Origin: an uncultured Ruminococcus sp.
GTDB taxonomy: Bacteria; Bacillota; Clostridia; Oscillospirales; Ruminococcaceae
Direction: 5' to 3'
Length of the DNA: 64,000 nucleotides
Assembly: GCA_947627445.1 (NCBI GenBank)
Contig: CANQWA010000008.1
Location: forward strand, 3,530-67,529
Below the pieces are notes generated by a model. It did no database searches, had not been told where the DNA came from, and saw only the letters and a program-made list of their open reading frames with translations. Below, in pieces: positions 53,310 to 64,000 of the stretch. The first letter of the stretch is position 1, and each line of letters opens with the position of its first letter. The position numbers and the translations under genes were made by a program.

Positions 53310-53469
53310 GGGCGTGTTGACACTAAGCCTAAAACACATCTTTTTGGCAGAATTTTACGCATACTGCGTCGAGAAAACTTGCCGGGCGACAGCCCGCCTG
53401 CGTTTTCTCTTCTTGTCTGCGCAGAAATTCTGCTCAAAAATCTGCGCTTTATTTTGTGTCAACACGCCC
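53310..53469. mobile_element. MITE-like element, family B (160 bp)
   Basis: Perfect 14-bp TIR GGGCGTGTTGACAC / GTGTCAACACGCCC with TA direct repeats (53308-9, 53470-1). The copA stop TAG is formed by the TA plus the first base of the element. Confidence 0.8.
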
Positions 53470-55985
53470 TAATCCAAAACCTCGTACCCCTGATCTGTCA
53501 CAGCTTTTTTCAAAGCGGCTTCATCTGCCGGGGCATTCAGCTTGACCACTACTGTGCCTGTTTCATGATCGGCAATCGCCTCGTCTACCGCCGGAAATGC
53601 CTCAAGTGCCTTTTTTACGGTTGCCTCGCAATGAGAGCACATCATTCCTTTGACGTTCAGTTTCATTTCCATTTTTTCTTCCTCCTGTAAATTTGTTGTC
53701 ATGGGGTGAATATCCAGCGGCCTCTTCCGGTCACGGTCTGTCCGATGCAGCCGGAACAGATTCAGCCGCAGGGCGTTTGTTACCACGCAGAAGCTGGAAA
53801 GGCTCATGGCTGCTGCGCCGAACATAGGATTCAGCTTCCAGCCCAACAGTGTGATAAACACACCGGCAGCCAATGGAATGCCAATACCATTGTAGATAAA
53901 TGCCCAGAATAGATTCTGGTGAATATTTCGTAATACGGCACGGCTCAGCCGGATCGCTGCTGGGACATCGGTGAGACGGTTTTTCATCAGGACAATGTCT
54001 GCGGCATCAATGGCAATATCCGTGCCTGCGCCGATGGCAATGCCGATATCTGCCCTGGTCAGCGCCGGTGCATCGTTGATGCCGTCACCTACCATCGCAA
54101 CCTTTCCCTGTTTTTTCAACTGCCGGATGACGGATTCTTTGCCGTCAGGCAGAACACCGGCAATGACTTCATCTACACCCACCTGTGCACCGATGGCGTT
54201 TGCGGTACGTGCATTGTCACCGGTGAGCATGACCGTATGAATGCCCATGTTCCGAAGCTGCCGGATCGCCTCCGGACTTTCTTCTTTAATGGTATCAGCC
54301 ACGGCGATGATGCCGGATAGCTTTCCGTCACGGCAAAAGAACAAGGGTGTTTTTCCTGCTTTTGCCAATGCCTCTGCCTGGTGCTGGATCTCTGTCGGAA
54401 TCTCTGTCACCGTGCGAATCAACTGCAGGCTGCCGCCGCAGACCGGACTGCCGTTAAGCTTTGCCGTTAAACCGTTGCCCGGCAACGCCTGAAAATCGGT
54501 GACCTGCTGCAAGGGCAGATGATGGTTCTCGCCGTATTGCACCACAGCTTTTGCCAGGGGATGCTCGCTGGGGGATTCCAGTGCATATGCCATGGAAAAA
54601 AGTTGTTCTTCTGTCACTTCCGATGTTGGGAGAATGTCTGTCACTTTGGGCTGTCCTTGTGTAATGGTACCAGTTTTGTCCAGAGCAATGATCTGCATTT
54701 TTCCGGTTTCTTCGGAAGAAGCTGCCGTTTTGAACAGAATGCCGTTTCTTGCACCAACACCATTTCCCACCATGATTGCCACAGGAGTCGCCAGTCCCAG
54801 CGCACAGGGGCAACTGATGACCAGCACAGAAATGCCTCTTGCTAGGGCAAAACCAACACGCTGTCCCACCAGAAGCCATACCAGAATCGTCACGGCAGCA
54901 ATGACAATGACCACTGGCACAAATACGCCGGAAACCCGGTCTGCTATTTTGGCAATCGGCGCTTTTGTTGCAGCAGCATCGCTGACCATGCGGATGATCT
55001 GGGACAGGGCAGTGTCCTCGCCCACACGTGTCGCCTCGCATTGCAAAAATCCGGACTGATTGATGGTAGCAGCAGAAACTGTATCTCCGACAGCCTTATC
55101 CACCGGAATGCTTTCTCCGGTCAACGCGGATTCATTGACAGCACTGCTGCCCTCTAAAATCACGCCGTCTACGGGAATGGATTCTCCGGGACGCACCACA
55201 AAGCGGTCACCCGGTTTTACTTGTTCAATGGGAATCACAACTTCTTTGCCGTTCCGCAGCAAAGTGGCTGTTTTGGGTGAGAGCGCCATAAGGCTTTTCA
55301 GTGCATCGGTGGTTTTTCCTTTGGAATGGGCTTCCAGCATTTTCCCAATGGTGATCAGGGTCAGAATCATAGCTGCGGATTCAAAGTAGAGGTCGTGCAT
55401 ATGATCCATGACGGCAGACATGTCATTTTCTATCTGTGCTGCCGTCATGGCGAACAGGGCGTAGGTGCTGTAGCCGAATGCTGCTGCTGAGCCAAGGGCT
55501 ACCAGGGTGTCCATGTTGGGGGAACGGTGGAGCAGGCTTTTGAAGCCGCTGATGAAAAATTTCTGGTTGATGACCATGATGGCAGCGGTGAGCAGAAGTT
55601 GCATCAAGCCCATTGCCACGTGATTGCCTTCCAGGAAGGGGGGCAGCCACCAGTTCCACATCATGTGTCCCATGGAGAGATACATCAGCGGAATGAGAAA
55701 GCACAGGGAAACGATCAAGCGGCGTTTTAGTGCCGGCGTATGACGGTCGGCAAGTGCATCGGCATCCGATGCAGATTTGGTTTCGGTGCCCTTCCGGGAA
55801 GCCCCATAGCCGGCGCTTTCCACTGCGGCAATGATTTCTTCCGGAGAAGCCGTTCCCTCTACGCCCATGGAGTTGGTCAGCAGGCTGACGGAACAGGAAG
55901 TCACGCCCTTGACCTGAGAGACAGCCTTTTCCACCCTGGTGCTGCATGCGGCACAGTTCATGCCGGTAACGTTGTATTGTTCCAT
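53469..55985 (-). CDS. copA: Cu(I)-exporting P1B-type ATPase with N- and C-terminal HMA domains
   Basis: [43 protein letters not shown]-terminal GMMCSHC. Confidence 0.95.
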
Positions 55986-56003
55986 AGGAATCCTCCTTTC
56001 CGG

Positions 56004-56312
56004 TTATCGCATGAGTTTTTGCAGAATGTTCACCAGCTCATCGATCACGTCATTCTTGCCATCACGAATATCATTGGCAACGCAGGTGCGGATGTGATTG
56101 GCAAGCAGTTCTTTGTTAAAAGCATTCAGGGCAGCAGTGACAGCGGATACCTGAACCAGAATATCTGTGCAGTAGGCGTTTTTTTCCACCATGCCGCGGA
56201 TGCCCCGGATTTGTCCCTCAATGCGGCTAAGACGGTTGAGTAGCTTGGTGTATTCTTCTTCTGAACGCTCTTTTGTTTTCTGACAGTGGGGACAGATTTT
56301 TTCTTCCGGCAT
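56004..56312 (-). CDS. csoR: Copper-sensing repressor CsoR
   Basis: NRL.RIEGQIRGI..MVE...YC.DIL.Q.SA...AL...L.NHIRTC (C-H-C ligands). Confidence 0.93.
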   Translation of the reverse strand: MPEEKICPHCQKTKERSEEEYTKLLNRLSRIEGQIRGIRGMVEKNAYCTDILVQVSAVTAALNAFNKELLANHIRTCVANDIRDGKNDVIDELVNILQKLMR

Positions 56313-56556: not shown

Positions 56557-57573
56557 TCAAAGTGCCTTGTCAGGCAAAAAGTCTGCCCGCTGTTTTTGAA
56601 GCGCCAGAAAATCCGCAGCCAGCATCTCTGCTTCTGCATAAGAGCCGAGATGATAACACCTCGCCCGAAACTTCGCAGCTCCATACAACCCATTCATGTA
56701 CCATGCTGCATGTTTTCGTGCTTCCCGGATGGCAATTTCCGGCGGCTTCTGGGGATTGCATTGCAGTATCAGCCGGATGTGATACAGCATGGTTTCCATG
56801 CGCTGCTCCAGAGTAGGTTGTCTGTATGCCTCACCAGAAATGACTGCCTCGATCTCCCGGAATACAAAGGGATTGCCATAGCTTCCTCTGCCCACCATGA
56901 CAAGATCACAGCCGGTCTGTTCGTACATGGCAAGACAGTCGGCGGCAGTACGGACATCGCCGTTGCCGATGACAGGAATCGTTACCGACTGCTTGACCTG
57001 CCGGATGGCATTCCAGTCCGCCTTGCCGCTGTAAAGCTGCTCCTTGGTGCGCCCGTGAACGGCAATGGCAGCAGCTCCTGCATCTTCCATTGCCTGTGCA
57101 AATTCCACGGCATTGCAGCAGCTTGCATCCCAGCCCAGCCGAAACTTGACCGTAACAGGTACACGGCTTTCCCGGACTGCAGCACGGACAATTTCCTGTG
57201 CCAGAGGAATGTCTTTCATCAAAGCACTGCCTGCACCGGTTGCGACGACCTTGTGAACAGGGCAGCCCATGTTGATGTCCAGCCAGTCGGGCTGGAACTG
57301 CTGCACCATGGCAGCGGCACGGGCAACAAAATCGGGTTCACTGCCGAAGAGCTGCAGCCCCATAGGGTGTTCGTTTTCTGTGATGGTGCAGAGCTGAGCA
57401 GAAGCTTTGTCTCCGTAGCATAAGCCTTTCACAGAAACCATTTCGCTGACAGCAGCGGCAGCACCGTATTCTCGGCAAAGGAGACGATATGCACGGTCGG
57501 CGACGCCTGCCATGGGTGCTAATATAGCGGTGCGGGGGATTTTCACAGAACCAATACAGCAAGTCGTTATCAT
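56557..57573 (-). CDS. dusB: tRNA-dihydrouridine synthase B
   Basis: LAPMAGV.D, QLFGS, DINMGCP..KV, GSALM, VHGRT..Q.YSG.ADW, GNGDV, MVGRG..GNP. Confidence 0.95.
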   Translation of the reverse strand: MITTCCIGSVKIPRTAILAPMAGVADRAYRLLCREYGAAAAVSEMVSVKGLCYGDKASAQLCTITENEHPMGLQLFGSEPDFVARAAAMVQQFQPDWLDINMGCPVHKVVATGAGSALMKDIPLAQEIVRAAVRESRVPVTVKFRLGWDASCCNAVEFAQAMEDAGAAAIAVHGRTKEQLYSGKADWNAIRQVKQSVTIPVIGNGDVRTAADCLAMYEQTGCDLVMVGRGSYGNPFVFREIEAVISGEAYRQPTLEQRMETMLYHIRLILQCNPQKPPEIAIREARKHAAWYMNGLYGAAKFRARCYHLGSYAEAEMLAADFLALQKQRADFLPDKAL

Positions 57574-57599
57574 ATACTTCCCTCTATTGCAAATCATGC

Positions 57600-57788: not shown

Positions 57789-59591
57789 TCAAGGTTCGTC
57801 CGTCAAATCTCCGGTAACCAGCATTCCCCGCAAAACAGCCAAATCCAGCCCATTGATCTTTTCATCTGCATAAACATCCGCATTCCAAAACTGTTCATCG
57901 GTGAATCCATCCGTTCCCAGCAGATATTTCAGCAGAGAGACTGCATCGGCAACTGTGACTTCTTTATCCAGGTTCACATCACCGCTTTGCAGTTCTTGCA
58001 CCATCAGTCCGGAGAGCACCACCTGATAGGATTCTTCCTTCAGGCTGCCGCAGTCAATGTTCAACCGGACGTCCATATCTCTGTCTGCGGTATAGAGGAA
58101 CGTCTTTCGTTCCGGTTCGCTTCCGATCTGCATAGAATATCCGGTAACAGCCTGGAACGTATCGGGAACAGACTGCCATAACAGTGCCATATCGCCCCGG
58201 ATGATGCTGTCCAAGCCCTGTGTGTGGATATCAAAGGAGATTCGATAGCGGTGGCCTTTCTGTACGGGAATCGATTCGTAGAACAACACCATATCACTGA
58301 CAGAGTTTCCGCCGTTGACAACGTTCAGTGTCACGGAATCCGCATCCGGTTCATAGTTTTCGATATAGCCGGCACCATTGTTGTTGAACCAGTTCTTGTA
58401 GCCGAAAGGATCGGATGCAAGGTTGTCACCTCTGTCATATTCAGGAACAGGAGGTGCATCATATTCGATGCCTACAGCAGCCAGAATGCCTTCTACCAGT
58501 TCTGGGTGCTGCCAATAGCCGCCCCGGCGGTTCATCAGTCCGTAAGCCGTATCGTAATTGCCGTCATCCCATATCACGCAAGGAATTCCCAGGTCGGCTG
58601 CTTTGGAGAGGTATTCCTGAAACCATTGGATGCGCACATTGGGTTGATCCTTGTTGGATGCACCGAATTCCCCAATGATCACCGGAAAGCCCTGATGCAT
58701 CAGATACCGTTGCAGCTCACCAAACATCCAGTCCAGCTCGCTGCTGCTGTAATCTGTCACGTCGGGGGCAGAATAGTCGCAGAACTCCCAGGGGGTATAG
58801 TTGTGGACTTCGGCGATTAGTTTATCCGGAACGGTATCTTCAGGCATCACAAAATTCCGCATGATCTGTGCAGAAGAACCGCTTGCGGCATAGGTATTGC
58901 AGATCAGCACACGTTCTGCATTATTGCCGCCGGTAGATCTGACGGTATCTACAAAGAGTTGATTGTACAGGTTGATGGCATCTGTGCCGTCTGTATCGGG
59001 ATCCCACCAGTTGTTTTCATCATTGATCATCTCATTGAAGCCCTCAAACAACAGATGATAGTCATATCCCTCAAACCGCTCTGCAATTTGTGTCCAGAGT
59101 GCCTGTACCTTGTCGTGGTTTTCTTCATAATTCTCCACGGCAGCACGGATCCAGCCTTCTTCACCGGTATCGTGGTGAATGTTCAAGATCACATAAAATC
59201 CCGCATTATAGGCATCATCCACGATTTCCTGCACCCGGTTCATCCACACCTCACTGACCTGGAAATTCTCGTTCATTTTGTTTCCCCATGTGACAGGAAT
59301 GCGGATGGTATCAAAGCCGCTTTCCCGCACCAGCTGGAGCATTTCCTTTGTGGCAGGGGGATTTCCCCAATAGGTCTCATGCACCTGGGGTACATCACAG
59401 GTGATGCTTGTACGAGTGTCTAAGTCATTGCCCAGATTCCAGCCGATGGTCATATCGCTGACGATCTCCTCTGCTGTAGGGGACATGTCGGCAGAGGTTT
59501 CTGCATCGACAGAGGCTGGGAATGTCTGCCATACCATACTTGCCAGAGCGCAGGCTGTTACAGCTGACAAAAGATTTTTCATGATTTTCAT
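57789..59591 (-). CDS. GH5 endoglucanase (subfamily 4-like) with CBM4-like module and dockerin
   Basis: Signal peptide, GWNLGNDLD, IRIPVTW, NIHHD, FEGFNE (acid/base), IIGEFG (nucleophile), beta-sandwich module and GDVNLDKEVTVAD dockerin. Confidence 0.9.
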   Translation of the reverse strand: MKIMKNLLSAVTACALASMVWQTFPASVDAETSADMSPTAEEIVSDMTIGWNLGNDLDTRTSITCDVPQVHETYWGNPPATKEMLQLVRESGFDTIRIPVTWGNKMNENFQVSEVWMNRVQEIVDDAYNAGFYVILNIHHDTGEEGWIRAAVENYEENHDKVQALWTQIAERFEGYDYHLLFEGFNEMINDENNWWDPDTDGTDAINLYNQLFVDTVRSTGGNNAERVLICNTYAASGSSAQIMRNFVMPEDTVPDKLIAEVHNYTPWEFCDYSAPDVTDYSSSELDWMFGELQRYLMHQGFPVIIGEFGASNKDQPNVRIQWFQEYLSKAADLGIPCVIWDDGNYDTAYGLMNRRGGYWQHPELVEGILAAVGIEYDAPPVPEYDRGDNLASDPFGYKNWFNNNGAGYIENYEPDADSVTLNVVNGGNSVSDMVLFYESIPVQKGHRYRISFDIHTQGLDSIIRGDMALLWQSVPDTFQAVTGYSMQIGSEPERKTFLYTADRDMDVRLNIDCGSLKEESYQVVLSGLMVQELQSGDVNLDKEVTVADAVSLLKYLLGTDGFTDEQFWNADVYADEKINGLDLAVLRGMLVTGDLTDEP

Positions 59592-59611: not shown

Positions 59612-59893
59612 TTATCGGCGGAATAATCCCCGTTTTTTCTTTTCCGGGGTATCGGTGATTCTGCTGCGGACGATCCGAGCCATTTCTCCTACATTTTTCA
59701 TGCCGGAGACTTCCTGCATCCGAAATTTCATGCCGAATTCATGCTCTACAGCCTCCACCAGATTGATATGCTCCAGACTCTCCCAGCCATCAATGTCATT
59801 GGCTGTGGTATCGTCAGAAAGGCAGATCTCTTCGTCATCAAATACATCACGAAAGATCTCGGTCAGTTTTTCCATAATTTCTTCATGTGTCAT
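59612..59893 (-). CDS. Acyl carrier protein (FkbH-associated type)
   Basis: IFRDVFDD, GWESLEH..L..A.E.EFG..F (phosphopantetheine Ser). Overlaps the fkbH stop by 11 nt. Confidence 0.9.
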   Translation of the reverse strand: MTHEEIMEKLTEIFRDVFDDEEICLSDDTTANDIDGWESLEHINLVEAVEHEFGMKFRMQEVSGMKNVGEMARIVRSRITDTPEKKKRGLFRR

Positions 59894-61697
59894 TGCCTGT
59901 ATGCTCCTTTTCTGTCTGATTCACATGGATCACATGGTTTTTTGGCGTATAGTCACCAATGTCCAGAACCCATGTGCTGTCACCGTTTTCAAATTGTTCT
60001 TTCAGGGTAAAGCCAAAATCACGGTACAGCTCCCGTACCATATGATTCTTATCCGTCTGATAATAATAGCCGCAGATGGTTTCCATGCTTCTGCGGCGGC
60101 ACTGTGCGATCAACTCGTCCAGCATGGCGTATTCCATATGCCGCTTCAGCACCCGGCAGCTCATGAGCCAGAGCTCCATATGAAGCGTCTTTCCGGCAAT
60201 TTCTCCTATCACGACGGAAACAATGCCGTTATCCCCGAATTTGTCTTTCAGCCGTCCATATAGCCGAATATATTTGTCACTGGCAGCGATTTGCGCCATT
60301 TCACTCTGGGTATACCGGCGTGTGGTCAGATTGAACTGATTGCTTTTGTTGGTCAACTGCACGATACGGGGCAGTGCCAATGCTGTGAAATCCTGTATCT
60401 CTGCCTGCATTTCCAGCCCCAGCAGATATTCTGTATAGCTGGCATAGGATTTTTCCATATGCGTCCGCTGGATATTGGCACGGTACATGTCCATGCGCTT
60501 TGTATCCGCTTCGGAAAACAAGGCTGCTTCAAAATAACCGGCACCGTCCAGGACACGAATGCATTCTGCCGGTGATGCAAAGGGCGGCGCGGCGACTCCC
60601 GGCAGTTGTACCGATACAATCTCACGTTCTGCCGGATTGTCATCTACAAACACAAAGCTTTCCGGCAGAAGGGAAAGGGCTTCTGCGGTCTTTGTCAGAT
60701 TCTGGTCCTTTGGTTCCCAGTTTGCCGCCATGAAAACGAAGTCGTTTTCATGCAGTACCGAATCCGGGTGGTTCAACCCCAGCAGGGCATTTTCCCTATC
60801 GTTTTTGGAGCAGACTGTCAGCAGGACGCCCAATTGCCCCAGCGACTTGCAATATTCCTGCATTTCGGTGAAGGCCTCAGCCTCGGCAGTTTCCTGTCCG
60901 ATCACAATGCCTTCCTGTCCGTCATCGCCGATGACACCGCCCCAGAGAGTGTTGTCCAGATCCAGTGCCAGCACCTTTTTGGTTTTGCCGTAGATGCTGC
61001 GAATGATTCGGGTCAGGCTATAGGCAAATTCCGGAATCGCCGGCACACAAAGGGAATACTTGTATAAATACCAATAGGAGGGATCAGACCAGGCATCCAG
61101 TCCGTATCGTGCAGATAGGTAGTGGATATCATGGAGGTAGAAATCCGTGTGAGAAGCTGCATAAACCGCAAACCGGCGGTTCAACTCCGACACAAACCAG
61201 ACCATGCCGTGACAGTCATAGGCATCCCGGTTTCCGAGCAGGCGATAGGATGGCAGTTCAAAGTTGTTCTGGATGACAGGGCAGTGATAACGCTCTGCCA
61301 GATGCTCCCACATTTGCGTGAAATGGGACATCTGCCGTTCCAGTGCTGCCTGTACGGTTTCTTCGGAGCTGTTCAGAGGCAAGGGTGCTTCGGTGATGTT
61401 GCGCTGAGAGGTGTGAATGAAGATCAGCTCCGGCTGGAATGTCGTCAGCTCCGGCGGATCAAACATGGCATCCTGCCAGTACTGAGCATATTCGGATTGG
61501 TAGAATGCCGGCTCAATCCCTTCCTGCAGCAGAAACAGCTCCAGCATGGAGACAATGTCATTTGTCGTGGAACCGCCCAGAACCGCAATGCGTTTTTTGA
61601 TGCGTTGTGTGCCGTCCTCCAGCAAGGCTTTTTTGAGTTTCCGGCGCTTTTTCAGCAGCTCGTTGCTGTCAAAGGGGTATTGTAATTCTGGTATCAT
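59883..61697 (-). CDS. fkbH: FkbH-like HAD-IIIC glyceryl-ACP synthase with C-terminal GNAT-like domain
   Basis: LDLDNTLWGG..G.DG (DxDxT), CSKND, FVDDNP.ER, QL.NKSNQFNLTT.RY, D.FGDNG.V, MSCRV. Confidence 0.92.
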   Translation of the reverse strand: MIPELQYPFDSNELLKKRRKLKKALLEDGTQRIKKRIAVLGGSTTNDIVSMLELFLLQEGIEPAFYQSEYAQYWQDAMFDPPELTTFQPELIFIHTSQRNITEAPLPLNSSEETVQAALERQMSHFTQMWEHLAERYHCPVIQNNFELPSYRLLGNRDAYDCHGMVWFVSELNRRFAVYAASHTDFYLHDIHYLSARYGLDAWSDPSYWYLYKYSLCVPAIPEFAYSLTRIIRSIYGKTKKVLALDLDNTLWGGVIGDDGQEGIVIGQETAEAEAFTEMQEYCKSLGQLGVLLTVCSKNDRENALLGLNHPDSVLHENDFVFMAANWEPKDQNLTKTAEALSLLPESFVFVDDNPAEREIVSVQLPGVAAPPFASPAECIRVLDGAGYFEAALFSEADTKRMDMYRANIQRTHMEKSYASYTEYLLGLEMQAEIQDFTALALPRIVQLTNKSNQFNLTTRRYTQSEMAQIAASDKYIRLYGRLKDKFGDNGIVSVVIGEIAGKTLHMELWLMSCRVLKRHMEYAMLDELIAQCRRRSMETICGYYYQTDKNHMVRELYRDFGFTLKEQFENGDSTWVLDIGDYTPKNHVIHVNQTEKEHTGNDT

Positions 61698-61749
61698 GCG
61701 TCAGCTCCTTTTGCATAAAAGTTTATCTTTTGCGTCATTCCGGGAAAGG

Positions 61750-63405
61750 TTACTGCTTTCGCAGCACTTCCAGCTGTTCGCTGTTGCCGCCTGTTGCACT
61801 GAATGTGTTCATGGCAAACAGCACATCTGTTGCCCCTGCGTTTTTGATGAAATCCACTGCATTCCGCTCAAAATAACGCATATCCAACACGTAAATATCC
61901 GTAAAGGAATGCGTCAGATAGGGGACAAGGGCATTGCCGTAGCTGTCTTTGATCATCACCAGCGTCCTGTCGTTGTCACAGTCTGTATGCACATGTGTGA
62001 TTTTTTCATCACCGCCCATAAAGACCAGATACCAGCTTACCGGTTCTACGTTGTCCAATTGAATCATGAGATTGCCTTCACGCGGGTTGGTGAAATCCAC
62101 ATCATAATATTCTGTGGTATAGTCATTCTGGGGCGTATAATAGGTGAAATCCTCGGGGTTGTCCTGTAATACAGCACTTTTGGTAAAGGTATACATGCTT
62201 CCCACATAGCCGGATTTTGTGGTTTTTTTGTATTGGGACAGATCGGCAAAGGGCACATCCGCCGTTTTGGCAAAAGCCTGTGCGGCATAATATGCGCCAA
62301 GAGGAAGCCAATGGTGATCCGTCCGGGCATAGATATCCTCGCTGACATGGGCAGCCAATGCACTGTAAGCGTCCACGGGTACCACATGGTCCAGGTTTTC
62401 GTTGATATGGGCAATGTTATCCGGTTCGCTGCCGGTATATCCGGCATAAGAGGATGGCAGATAAAAGGAAACTGCCGTGGGTGCGACCAGAGAGTAGACA
62501 TTCACATCGTTTCCCAGCGCTTTCTTGTAACGGTTCAGAGATTTTGCATAGGATTCTCCCCGTGAAAAGCTGCCGCCGTACACACTGAGAGCACGATCAC
62601 CCACTAGCACAATGCCGTCACCCACATCCACAGGGTCGCCTTCCGGTTCGGGAAAAGTCACAGTAGTTGCCGTCGTGGTGGTCAAGGGTGTAGCAGCCGG
62701 ATGGTTTGTCGTGATAGAGTTTTCCGGAACAGGTGTTGCCGCAGGGGGCGTTGTTTCTGTCTGTATTTGCTTCACATTGCCAAAGAATTGCACCTGATCG
62801 GTACTGCGGATGCCCTTCATGCTGTCCATCCGGCTGATCAGTCTTTTGAAAAAGCTTCTGCCCGGCACAGTATCCTCAAAATAATGCATCAAATCTGCCA
62901 TATAGGAACCGTCTGCCACAGCATGCCACGAAAATGCAGGGAACTTTGCCAGCATCCGGTTTTCTTCAGCGGATTCTGTGGGATGAACGCCCACGATGAG
63001 AAATACGGAGCCGCCAAAGATCACAGCACTGACAACGGCGATCCGGATCACAGCGCTGATGTGCTTGGCAAGCACCATAGAACGCCGCTTGTCACGCCTT
63101 GCACGAATCTCTTCCAGAGATCCGGCATGACGTTCTGGTTCAGATGCTGTGGGCTTTTCCGCCGGAGACAAGACATCCTCTCCGGTTTCCGGCTGAGGTG
63201 TTGTCCCATCTGTATCGGACAGCAGAATTTCTGAGAAAATCTGTTCTTCTTCCTCTGACAGCGCCTCTTCCGGCACATGCAAAGACTGTTCACTCAGCAT
63301 ACGGAGTTTGTCGGATTCTTTTTGTATTTCCTGAAATTTCTCCGCCAGGGCGGCGTCCAGATCGAATTCCTCAGAATTCGGCTGCGTTTTTTGGGTATCT
63401 GACAT
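61750..63405 (-). CDS. DHHW-family (AlgJ/DltD-like SGNH) membrane-anchored acyltransferase
   Basis: TM anchor, ENR.LA.FP, Y.RTDHHW...GAY.A, KDSYGNA (Ser nucleophile). Start set to ATG 63405. Confidence 0.85.
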   Translation of the reverse strand: MSDTQKTQPNSEEFDLDAALAEKFQEIQKESDKLRMLSEQSLHVPEEALSEEEEQIFSEILLSDTDGTTPQPETGEDVLSPAEKPTASEPERHAGSLEEIRARRDKRRSMVLAKHISAVIRIAVVSAVIFGGSVFLIVGVHPTESAEENRMLAKFPAFSWHAVADGSYMADLMHYFEDTVPGRSFFKRLISRMDSMKGIRSTDQVQFFGNVKQIQTETTPPAATPVPENSITTNHPAATPLTTTTATTVTFPEPEGDPVDVGDGIVLVGDRALSVYGGSFSRGESYAKSLNRYKKALGNDVNVYSLVAPTAVSFYLPSSYAGYTGSEPDNIAHINENLDHVVPVDAYSALAAHVSEDIYARTDHHWLPLGAYYAAQAFAKTADVPFADLSQYKKTTKSGYVGSMYTFTKSAVLQDNPEDFTYYTPQNDYTTEYYDVDFTNPREGNLMIQLDNVEPVSWYLVFMGGDEKITHVHTDCDNDRTLVMIKDSYGNALVPYLTHSFTDIYVLDMRYFERNAVDFIKNAGATDVLFAMNTFSATGGNSEQLEVLRKQ

Positions 63406-63421
63406 CCAGTTTCCCCCCCCT

Positions 63422-64000
63422 TTAAAATTTCGCATATAAGAACGGTGTATAAGTGGCGTCTACCAATAAAATGCTGCTGATTACCAGAACCGCACCAGCA
63501 AGAACGGTTCCCGTCACAGAAAAGGCGACAGTCGCACTGGCGCTTTTCTGCATCAGCTTTTCCGGCAGGGACAGCAGCGGGAAGCAACAGATCACGGCAG
63601 CGATCAGCAAAAACAGATTGTTCTGCACAGAAGTCAGCAGAACAGCGTCGGTCAACCCTGTGCCGTTAAAACCAGCCATGGCGGCAAAAAGATCCCCTAC
63701 CTTGGTCAGACTGTCCTCTCCGGAACAGTAGAAGATGCCAAATCCGACAATAATAATGAGCTTATTGCACACATGGCGGAGTATTGCGGGGATCTTCTGC
63801 ATCCCCTTTTTGCCAATTCCGGTTTCCATGATCAGAAACAATCCATAATAGATGCCCCAGATGATATAGTTCCAGCTTGCACCATGCCATAAACCAGTAC
63901 AGAACCACACCAGCATCAGACCGCCGATTTTGCGGCGCTTTCCGAAAATGGGCACATACAGGAGATAATCCCGGAAGAATGTTCCCAGAGAAATGTGCCA
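63422..64000 (-). CDS. MBOAT family O-acyltransferase (AlgI/DltB-like), 5' end outside the window
   Basis: The frame stays open to the window edge: WHISLGTFFRDYL, TGLWHGASWNYIIWG (catalytic His), C-terminus PFLYAKF. Confidence 0.92.
   Translation of the reverse strand, partial: WHISLGTFFRDYLLYVPIFGKRRKIGGLMLVWFCTGLWHGASWNYIIWGIYYGLFLIMETGIGKKGMQKIPAILRHVCNKLIIIVGFGIFYCSGEDSLTKVGDLFAAMAGFNGTGLTDAVLLTSVQNNLFLLIAAVICCFPLLSLPEKLMQKSASATVAFSVTGTVLAGAVLVISSILLVDATYTPFLYAKF

Follow-up and report, generated by a model that had tools for sequence, protein, structure and literature searches.

A conserved FkbH-carrier protein-MBOAT-DHHW operon in Ruminococcus is a candidate relay for glyceryl-type esterification of the cell envelope

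In a 64,000-nucleotide stretch of the genome of an uncultured Ruminococcus sp. (assembly GCA_947627445.1, 80 contigs, 2.58 Mb; contig CANQWA010000008.1, or C8, positions 3530-67529; "the window" below denotes this entire stretch), we identified four adjacent genes, all on the minus strand, that encode a membrane-bound O-acyltransferase (MBOAT), a DHHW-family SGNH-like protein, an FkbH-like enzyme and a 93-amino-acid (aa) carrier protein. We propose, with a probability of about 0.6, that this operon encodes an MBOAT-SGNH acyl relay, fed by a carrier protein, through which a cell-envelope polymer is esterified with a glyceryl-type group. We are fairly confident that the MBOAT-SGNH pair receives its acyl group from the carrier protein, and put the identity of the delivered group as glyceryl at about even odds; glyceryl ester transfer to an envelope polymer is the most likely function, where we infer both the acyl group and the acceptor. 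The operon is real and well conserved, and its gene content, operon structure, intact catalytic residues, conserved linkage and lack of a polyketide synthase (PKS), nonribosomal peptide synthetase (NRPS) or ligase context are direct observations; it is best read as a new carrier-protein-fed form of MBOAT-SGNH envelope acylation.

A compact four-gene operon

A preliminary description, made from the sequence of the window alone, had pointed to four tightly packed minus-strand genes with gaps of 16 and 52 nt and an 11-nt overlap, and both the list of open reading frames (ORFs) and hidden Markov model (HMM) scans agree with it. The spacing (16, 52 and -11 nt) is reproduced once the DHHW start is set at the ATG at 63405, the most likely start, which stands behind the better ribosome-binding site (GGGGGGGGAA) and places the gene 16 nt downstream of MBOAT. 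The HMM search that had been suggested as a check matched the MBOAT, DHHW and FkbH/HAD-IIIC domains, with PP-binding slightly under the Pfam cut-off, and every catalytic motif said to be intact in the four proteins was located in the sequence (Table 1).

The MBOAT gene extends past the end of the window, and an additional 4.5 kb of the contig was read beyond that point; positions there are given as window-equivalent. The full MBOAT comprises 470 aa and starts at an ATG (MIFSRL...) at 64834, preceded by the ribosome-binding site AAGGAAG. A longer ORF of 529 aa that begins at an upstream GTG was dropped given that the MIFSRL start has a ribosome-binding site, lies 3' of the promoter and fits the N-termini of homologues. 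The sigma-70-like promoter (TTGTCA-18-TATAAT) is located 77 nt 5' of the MBOAT start, at about 64911-64940 and hence outside the window, and a terminator-like hairpin closes the gene upstream of the operon, so that the promoter-like site and the MBOAT start both come after the hairpin. Examination of the contig past position 64000 for other donors, also suggested as a check, yielded this promoter and an unrelated SPFH/NfeD gene pair, and no AMP-ligase, PKS or NRPS gene was detected in the operon or in the 4.5 kb of contig upstream of MBOAT. The statement that the operon comes without a DltA-like ligase likewise extends to the genome, where a search found no DltA, the best match to TIGR01734, on another contig, scoring 76.6 bits against a cut-off of 559.85.

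Table 1 Positions of the cassette genes, their predicted functional sites and related features (window coordinates unless stated otherwise)
Feature	Position	Strand	Evidence or remark
MBOAT gene	63422..64000 in window	-	PF03062 5e-09 on the C-terminal 192 aa inside the window
His280 codon (RWHISL), predicted catalytic His	63995..63997	-	Alignment with DltB
FLYAKF C-terminal hexapeptide, residues 465-470, Tyr467	63425..63442	-	FxYxxF acyl-shuttle motif
DHHW-family SGNH-like protein, 551 aa	61750..63405	-	PF14286 5.3e-46
Transmembrane anchor of DHHW protein, residues 118-140	62986..63054	-	Hydropathy scan
TDHHW motif (block V), residues 362-366	62308..62322	-	Aligned with TDHHW of PatB1 and 4NZK
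Ser488 codon in KDSYGN, predicted acyl-enzyme nucleophile	61942..61944	-	Aligned with KDSF of PatB1
FkbH-like loader, 604 aa	59883..61697	-	TIGR01686 5.5e-81, TIGR01681, PF21211 (FkbH_N)
HAD motif I DLDNT (Asp246, Asp248, Thr250)	60948..60962	-	Invariant in cassette-type and PKS/NRPS-context homologues
Cys514 codon in LMSCRV, predicted acyl-thioester cysteine	60156..60158	-	SCRV invariant in 7 sequences
Acyl carrier protein, 93 aa	59612..59893	-	NCBIfam ACP models, PDB 2LML; overlaps the FkbH stop codon by 11 nt
Ser39 codon (GWESL), predicted phosphopantetheine attachment site	59777..59779	-	Aligned with AWDSL of 2LML
GH5 endoglucanase with dockerin	57789..59591	-	PF00150 8.4e-60, PF00404; outside the conserved cassette
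S. meliloti pSymB cassette: MBOAT, 409-aa protein, ACP, FkbH	L083 5225-10260 = CP140955.1 1048481-1053516

The FkbH-like loader and its carrier protein

The FkbH-like protein, which we refer to as the loader, scores well above the cut-offs of TIGR01686 (272.2 vs 146.65 bits) and of the HAD-IIIC model TIGR01681 (62.2 vs 35.75 bits) and has three domains: SGNH/flavodoxin-like at the N-terminus, a HAD-IIIC phosphatase in the middle and a GNAT fold at the C-terminus. The solved relative identified by sequence, BF1531 of Bacteroides fragilis (PDB 3SLR, 5.3e-46), covers only the N-terminal and HAD parts. In a Foldseek search of the PDB with an AlphaFold2 model of the loader (mean pLDDT 77, pTM 0.44), 3SLR was the first match, followed by many GNAT acetyltransferases (C-terminal domain, target TM ~0.7) and by GDSL esterases; by our assignment, the latter probably correspond to the N-terminal domain. 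The GNAT fold, a pantetheine-binding fold, surrounds Cys514 in the model, and we read this cysteine as probably lying between the last strand of the three-stranded sheet and the next helix of the domain.

For comparison, we used three homologues encoded on annotated plasmids, namely, one from B. cereus in a zwittermicin-type NRPS/PKS cluster, one from Streptomyces in a tetronate-type cluster with ketosynthase (KS), FabH-like, acyl carrier protein (ACP), phosphopantetheinyl transferase (PPTase) and AfsA-related genes, and one from Streptomyces that adjoins an acyl-CoA dehydrogenase, an ACP and an NRPS. The loader shares 27-31% identity with these proteins, and D246, D248, T250, S297, K330, D352 and S513-C514-R515-V516 are all invariant; the three-domain architecture is wholly shared with the homologue from the tetronate cluster. 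Because the residues shared with PKS-context homologues are invariant, FkbH chemistry is provisionally assigned to this clade. The best 120 of more than 8000 database relatives of the loader are all at least 47% identical to it, and nearly all at least 59%; the named ones among these 120 come from Ruminococcus and Clostridia assemblies and are labelled only "HAD-IIIC family phosphatase" or "FkbH-like".

The carrier protein matches NCBIfam ACP models with E-values down to 2.9e-07, in all cases under the curated cut-offs, and, among proteins of solved structure, comes closest to the putative ACP 2LML (6.6e-19). Among homologous carrier proteins, WDSL is the commonest form of the motif around the predicted attachment serine. 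A single AcpS-type PPTase that is predicted to be able to make holo-ACP is encoded in the genome.

A PatA/PatB1-like membrane half

The MBOAT aligns with the DltB structures 6BUG and 8JEM (8e-29), DltB being the closest MBOAT of solved structure, such that RWHISL, which includes His280, falls over RWHMSL of DltB and GLWHG over GFWHG. A histidine in the RWHISL-type motif is the universally conserved catalytic residue of MBOATs (PMC12148441). The protein ends in ...TPFLYAKF, that is, in the FxYxxF motif, which in the Dlt system resides on the microprotein DltX, whereas in PatA-type MBOATs it is fused to two extra C-terminal helices, its tyrosine taking over the acyl group from the MBOAT and carrying it on to the SGNH partner (PMC12148441). 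The Ruminococcus MBOAT has both the extra C-terminal helices and the fused motif, which DltB lacks; therefore, no DltX is needed, and there is no room for a small DltX-like ORF between the operon genes. Against the DltB equivalog model TIGR04091, the 192 residues inside the window score 26.9 bits, compared to a cut-off of 375. Among the complete MBOATs of FkbH-centred loci, at any distance from FkbH, 63 of 64 end in FxYxxF.

The outer enzyme matches DHHW (PF14286, 158 bits against a Pfam cut-off of 25, with a weaker match to AlgX), not DltD. It aligns with the E. siraeum protein EUBSIR_00411 (PDB 4NZK) at 3.8e-77 and with B. cereus PatB1 (5V8D) at 6.1e-13, and begins with an acidic cytoplasmic tail of about 117 aa; a single transmembrane helix and a Thr/Pro-rich linker then lead to the catalytic domain, which is extracytoplasmic. 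The DxRY oxyanion motif takes the form DMRY (residues 508-511), with the counterparts DLRH in PatB1 and DIRY in 4NZK; the roles of Ser337 and Arg359 of PatB1 have been described (PMC9487903). In a sample of the family with one genome per genus (n=121), an FkbH-like gene is present in 38 genomes and a DHHW protein in 81. The sample contains ten DHHW hits at 45% identity or more, nine of them encoded within 400 nt of an FkbH gene, and DHHW proteins at 31-43% identity are present in genomes without FkbH. Because the hits at 45% identity or higher are nearly all located beside FkbH, the DHHW protein appears to represent a subfamily specialised for the cassette. As a separate observation, the strongly acidic N-terminal tail (62986-63405 with the anchor included) is kept only within the genus.

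Given the fused FxYxxF on the MBOAT and the PatB1-type DHHW outer enzyme, the membrane half of the system appears to be PatA/PatB1-like rather than DltB/DltX/DltD-like. The original characterisation of the operon as a Dlt-like relay thus stands with respect to feeding by a carrier protein and has to be amended with respect to the membrane half, so that, judged by its motifs, the system is a hybrid, Dlt-like in its use of a carrier protein and PatA/PatB1-like downstream.

Conservation of the cassette across genomes

Scanning one genome per species, we found at least 598 genomes with a relative of the FkbH-like protein, retained 80 loci with 10-kb flanks and counted the neighbours in these loci by tblastn combined with ORF clustering. 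A carrier protein is encoded within 5 kb of FkbH in 76 of the 80 loci, and an MBOAT within 6 kb in 58, compared to a chance expectation for an MBOAT at that distance of about 1.6% (3 MBOAT genes in 2.58 Mb). The identical order MBOAT > DHHW > FkbH > ACP recurs in 28 loci, all from Oscillospiraceae, including the cultured Ruminococcus flavefaciens 007c (L051). Because the same four-gene order is found in 28 of the 80 loci, the arrangement is far beyond chance.

When the 80 loci were probed with NRPS/PKS proteins of B. cereus, nothing was detected in 78, FabF/FabD-like genes were present in one, and a single AMP-ligase in another; with only these two exceptions, a PKS/NRPS or ligase context for the cassette was rejected. 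The neighbourhood survey that had been proposed to assess co-occurrence outside such clusters accordingly came out in favour of the relay, FkbH, carrier protein and MBOAT co-occurring widely without PKS or NRPS genes. A literature search, with subscription journals outside its coverage, found no published description of an FkbH-ACP-MBOAT-SGNH cassette.

Proposed mechanism

Going by the chemistry of the FkbH family, the loader would take 1,3-bisphosphoglycerate, a glycolytic acyl-phosphate, its HAD-IIIC domain (Asp246, Asp248) would strip the 3-phosphate, and the glyceryl group would be held as a thioester on Cys514 before being passed to the phosphopantetheine arm on Ser39 of the carrier protein. 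Because 1,3-bisphosphoglycerate is already activated, an ATP-using adenylase such as DltA would not be needed. By analogy with the docking of DltC to DltB and with PatA, glyceryl-ACP would then dock at the cytoplasmic face of the MBOAT, after which the acyl group, with His280 as the catalyst, would move to Tyr467 in the FLYAKF shuttle that forms part of the MBOAT itself, at the outer face. Finally, as in PatB and PatB1, the DHHW protein would pick up the acyl group on Ser488 and pass it to a hydroxyl of the acceptor, the candidates being a wall glycan, a teichoic-acid-like polymer or a glycoprotein. The O-glycerate esters on native gellan provide a chemical precedent (PMC7009714).

Sister cassettes

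The second common gene order, found in Lachnospiraceae, Christensenellaceae and others, is FkbH > ACP > tailoring genes > MBOAT > a 310-510-aa protein without a Pfam match. This outer protein contains invariant D50, G55, S57 and H290, and its model (pLDDT 90) matches DltD first (3BMA, 6O93, 6PFX, 7DXM), followed by GDSL hydrolases. A relationship with DHHW was considered and rejected, given that profile-profile comparison with DHHW gave no signal and that the motifs and the fold point to a DltD-like SGNH protein. Because the model of the outer protein matches DltD first, the sister cassettes are likely to be of the FkbH-ACP-MBOAT-DltD-like type.

The tailoring genes encode a MaoC dehydratase, an SDR protein and a glyoxalase-fold protein, sometimes accompanied by a split transketolase or an aldo-keto reductase (identified by eye). 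By analogy, the MaoC, SDR and glyoxalase-fold enzymes would suit the tailoring of a 2,3-dihydroxyacyl thioester, and the tailoring set fits such a starting group. From glyceryl-ACP, a dehydratase together with a reductase would produce pyruvoyl-ACP and then lactyl-ACP, and a similar dehydratase/reductase logic has been proposed for the lactate starter units of trans-acyltransferase (trans-AT) polyketide synthases. In five loci (L038, L055, L071, L078 and L080), a MaoC dehydratase and the two subunits (N- and C-terminal) of a split transketolase are inserted between FkbH and ACP, a hint that the hydroxy-acyl group borne by the carrier protein could be C2 or remodelled in some other way. In a third arrangement, found in Lachnospiraceae, the FkbH-ACP pair lies amid GT2 and GtrA-like genes (both by eye) and GT-C-like, DUF6044 and GDSL genes, surroundings that look like typical envelope glycosylation machinery.

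A cassette on the pSymB replicon of Sinorhizobium meliloti (Table 1) encodes an MBOAT that ends in PPFLYQGF, an ACP with QWDSL and an FkbH protein with 38% identity, and is located a few kb upstream of a gene for capsular polysaccharide biosynthesis, two ABC-transporter genes, rkpR and kpsF. Its 409-aa protein has no Pfam match and is annotated as a "TonB-dependent receptor", probably a misannotation. A search of the literature on these pSymB genes, with subscription journals outside its coverage, found none.

Alternative explanations

Several points weigh against the glyceryl relay. An MBOAT is missing within 6 kb of FkbH in 22 of the 80 loci, some of them on truncated contigs, and three complete Ruminiclostridium loci (L030, L052, L064) have the arrangement DHHW-DHHW-FkbH-ACP with no MBOAT within 10 kb. 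These cassettes directly follow housekeeping genes, pth in L052 and L064 and also mfd in L064, and either their MBOAT is encoded elsewhere or they have a different mode of action. Homologues from PKS/NRPS or capsule-linked settings share no more than 27-33% identity with the loader, so that its substrate could differ, and the Pfam PP-binding score of the carrier protein falls slightly under the cut-off (19.4 vs 20.8). To our knowledge, there is no biochemistry for this FkbH-like clade, and we are not aware that glycerate esters have been reported from Ruminococcus envelopes. The single PatA-type MBOAT that has been tested uses acetyl-CoA, and its authors describe such pathways as operating without a carrier protein, so that the use of ACP by a PatA-type MBOAT would be unprecedented (PMC12148441).

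The alternative closest to the glyceryl relay is that the same relay delivers another acyl group, be it lactyl, pyruvoyl, 3-phosphoglyceryl, hydroxymalonyl or one derived from another phosphorylated acid, which we consider rather unlikely. The low identity of the clade to PKS/NRPS-context and capsule-linked homologues (27-33%) speaks for such a difference, as do the tailoring enzymes of the sister cassettes, by which the family handles more than one final acyl group. In the operon analysed here, however, no tailoring gene is located between the loader and the MBOAT, the catalytic residues common to the glyceryl-ACP-forming relatives are all kept, and every FkbH-like enzyme that we found described uses 1,3-bisphosphoglycerate.

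Somewhat less probable is the combination of two unrelated systems in one gene cluster, in which MBOAT-DHHW would be an acetyl-CoA-dependent O-acetyltransferase of the PatA1/PatB1 or CcsH/CcsI type and FkbH-ACP would supply glyceryl-ACP for another product, such as a lipid, a glycolipid or a small molecule. The use of acetyl-CoA by the PatA-type MBOAT tested (PMC12148441) speaks for such a split; moreover, DHHW is commoner than FkbH (81 vs 38 of the 121 genomes) and widespread without it, and some FkbH-ACP pairs stand without an MBOAT. The linkage to an MBOAT in 58 of the 80 loci, however, extends over several phyla, three types of outer enzyme (DHHW, DltD-fold and GDSL) and two gene orders, and the closest DHHW subfamily is found almost only beside FkbH. 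Within the operon, start and stop codons overlap or nearly touch, and no other consumer of glyceryl-ACP (KS, FabH-like, FkbI/K/G) is encoded nearby.

A remnant or minimal secondary-metabolite pathway of the tetronate, methoxymalonyl or zwittermicin type, with glyceryl-ACP as a building block, appears highly improbable: although the FkbH family was defined in such pathways and homologues on Streptomyces and Bacillus plasmids lie in PKS/NRPS clusters, the 10-kb surroundings of the operon, like those of 78 of the 80 relatives, contain no gene for a KS, a FabH-like, condensation or adenylation protein, an FkbI/K-type dehydrogenase or a methyltransferase, and the conserved partners are membrane and extracytoplasmic acyltransferases. 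A ccs-like module, in which MBOAT-DHHW and the adjacent glycoside hydrolase family 5 (GH5) enzyme acylate a self-made cellulose-like exopolysaccharide in the manner of Clostridial CcsH, CcsI and CcsZ, is suggested by the GH5 gene 20 nt after the operon and by the union of GH5, MBOAT and DHHW in the Clostridial ccs locus (PMC7710045), but we consider this acetyl-cellulose reading very remote and reject it because there is no cellulose synthase (GT2; CcsA/CcsB) in the contig flanks, the dockerin marks GH5 as a cellulosome enzyme for plant fibre in a genome rich in dockerin genes, and GH5 is not conserved downstream of the cassette in relatives.

Comparison with known systems

In the Dlt pathway of teichoic acid D-alanylation (DltA, DltC, DltB, DltX, DltD), the acyl group passes from a carrier protein loaded in the cytoplasm to the MBOAT, the FxYxxF tyrosine, an extracytoplasmic SGNH transferase and, finally, the envelope polymer (PMC12148441). 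The cassette resembles Dlt in encoding, within the operon, a phosphopantetheinyl-type carrier protein that is predicted to feed the MBOAT, and, in the sister cassettes, in the apparent use of an outer enzyme with the DltD fold. It differs in the loader, which would be an FkbH-type phosphatase/acyltransferase using a pre-activated acyl-phosphate rather than a DltA that uses ATP, in the fusion of the shuttle tyrosine to the MBOAT instead of its location on DltX, in the DHHW rather than DltD outer enzyme, and in the predicted acyl group, a neutral hydroxy-acid as opposed to the cationic amino acid of Dlt.

With PatA/PatB, which are involved in Gram-negative peptidoglycan O-acetylation, and PatA1/PatB1, which O-acetylate the secondary cell wall polysaccharide of Bacillus cereus, the cassette shares an MBOAT with two extra C-terminal helices and FxYxxF. 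Its outer enzyme is like PatB1 in the DHHW, Ser nucleophile and DxRY motifs and, in keeping with an MBOAT-SGNH relay of the PatA/PatB type, has a membrane anchor and adjoins the MBOAT. The Pat systems, however, use acetyl-CoA and are stated to function without a carrier protein (PMC12148441), in contrast to the dedicated carrier protein and loader encoded here, which appear to be translationally coupled to the MBOAT-DHHW pair and inherited with it. The conservation of the carrier protein and loader argues for a donor other than acyl-CoA.

The HAD-IIIC motifs, the SCRV cysteine and the adjacent ACP gene are shared with the glyceryl-ACP synthases of polyketide pathways (FkbH, OzmB, ZmaN and the tetronate "glycerate utilisation" enzymes), from which the loader differs in its low identity (27-31%), in the lack of a KS, FabH-like, FkbI/K/G or NRPS consumer and in having envelope acyltransferases as neighbours. 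In Campylobacter jejuni, the flagellin of strain 11168 bears di-O-methylglyceroyl-modified nonulosonic acids, and the flagellar glycosylation locus presumably contains extra ACP genes. Like the cassette, this locus places an FkbH-domain gene, cj1302, in the context of glycan modification and not in a polyketide cluster (PMC7099621). Unlike the cassette, the C. jejuni modification would occur on a cytoplasmic nucleotide sugar, without an MBOAT-SGNH export relay. The structures 4NZK, 3SLR and 2LML, homologues of the DHHW protein, the loader and the carrier protein, respectively, belong to uncharacterised single structural-genomics proteins outside any pathway.

In the current account, Dlt is the sole carrier-fed MBOAT-SGNH pathway, all others being fed by acyl-CoA (PMC12148441). 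It is plausible, with the balance about level, that FkbH-ACP-MBOAT-SGNH cassettes constitute a second widespread carrier-dependent route of envelope acylation, parallel to D-alanylation, in which a C3 group that glycolysis provides in activated form, as 1,3-bisphosphoglycerate, is taken as acyl-ACP rather than acyl-CoA by a PatA-type MBOAT and delivered as glyceryl esters or, where a dehydratase and a reductase are present, as lactyl- or pyruvoyl-type esters to the surface glycans of gut Clostridia, rhizobia and other phyla. If so, a PatA-type MBOAT would be able to draw its acyl group from a carrier protein, and glycolytic flux would be wired directly to cell-surface decoration. Abundant gut and rumen Firmicutes would bear a previously unseen envelope ester that could affect recognition by phages, lysozyme, lectins and the immune system. 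Furthermore, the orphan structures 4NZK, 3SLR and 2LML would acquire a function, and there would be a candidate gene set for glycerate esters like those of gellan. The location of the S. meliloti cassette beside capsule export genes makes the idea open to ordinary genetics.

Other MBOAT systems and neighbouring genes

The FkbH gene is single-copy in the genome, which contains two further MBOAT pairs, both on contig C1. One (C1 69101-71433, plus strand) consists of a PatA-type MBOAT ending in NNPFLYFQF and, after it, a secreted GDSL protein; it lacks a carrier protein, is presumably an acetyl-CoA-dependent O-acetylation system and would serve well as an internal comparator. In the other (C1 112583-115124, minus strand), a divergent MBOAT without the FxYxxF tail lies beside a DHHW-like protein of about 380 aa in which DHHW is changed to DPRW; this pair may differ in catalysis and serve a different function, and relatives of its DPRW protein (25-33% identity) are present in most genomes of the family.

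Upstream of MBOAT, the contig carries an SPFH/band-7 gene, an NfeD gene and then a divergent MscS-like gene (assigned by eye). The NfeD-SPFH/band-7 pair directly upstream of the operon (L001 8541-10017, window-equivalent 65041-66517) recurs ahead of the cassette in L002, L007 and L051, all of Ruminococcus type, an adjacency that may amount to no more than synteny or may connect the operon functionally with membrane microdomains.

On the other side of the operon, the GH5 gene starts 20 nt past the ACP stop codon, behind a ribosome-binding site of its own (AGGAGAA). No terminator separates the two genes, and in this genome GH5 is probably co-transcribed with the acylation operon. Of the 80 related loci, a single one (L081) has a GH5 homologue downstream of the cassette, and the match there is weak. 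With its C-terminal dockerin, the GH5 protein represents a cellulosome enzyme adjoining an operon of predicted envelope acylation; the genome encodes many dockerin proteins. Farther along the window are ordinary genes, namely, a Dus tRNA-dihydrouridine synthase gene (56557-57597) and, downstream of it, a small CsoR-like repressor gene (56004-56312) followed by a gene for a CopA-type copper P-type ATPase with two heavy-metal-binding domains, the latter two genes, both identified by eye, spanning 53469-56312 on the minus strand.

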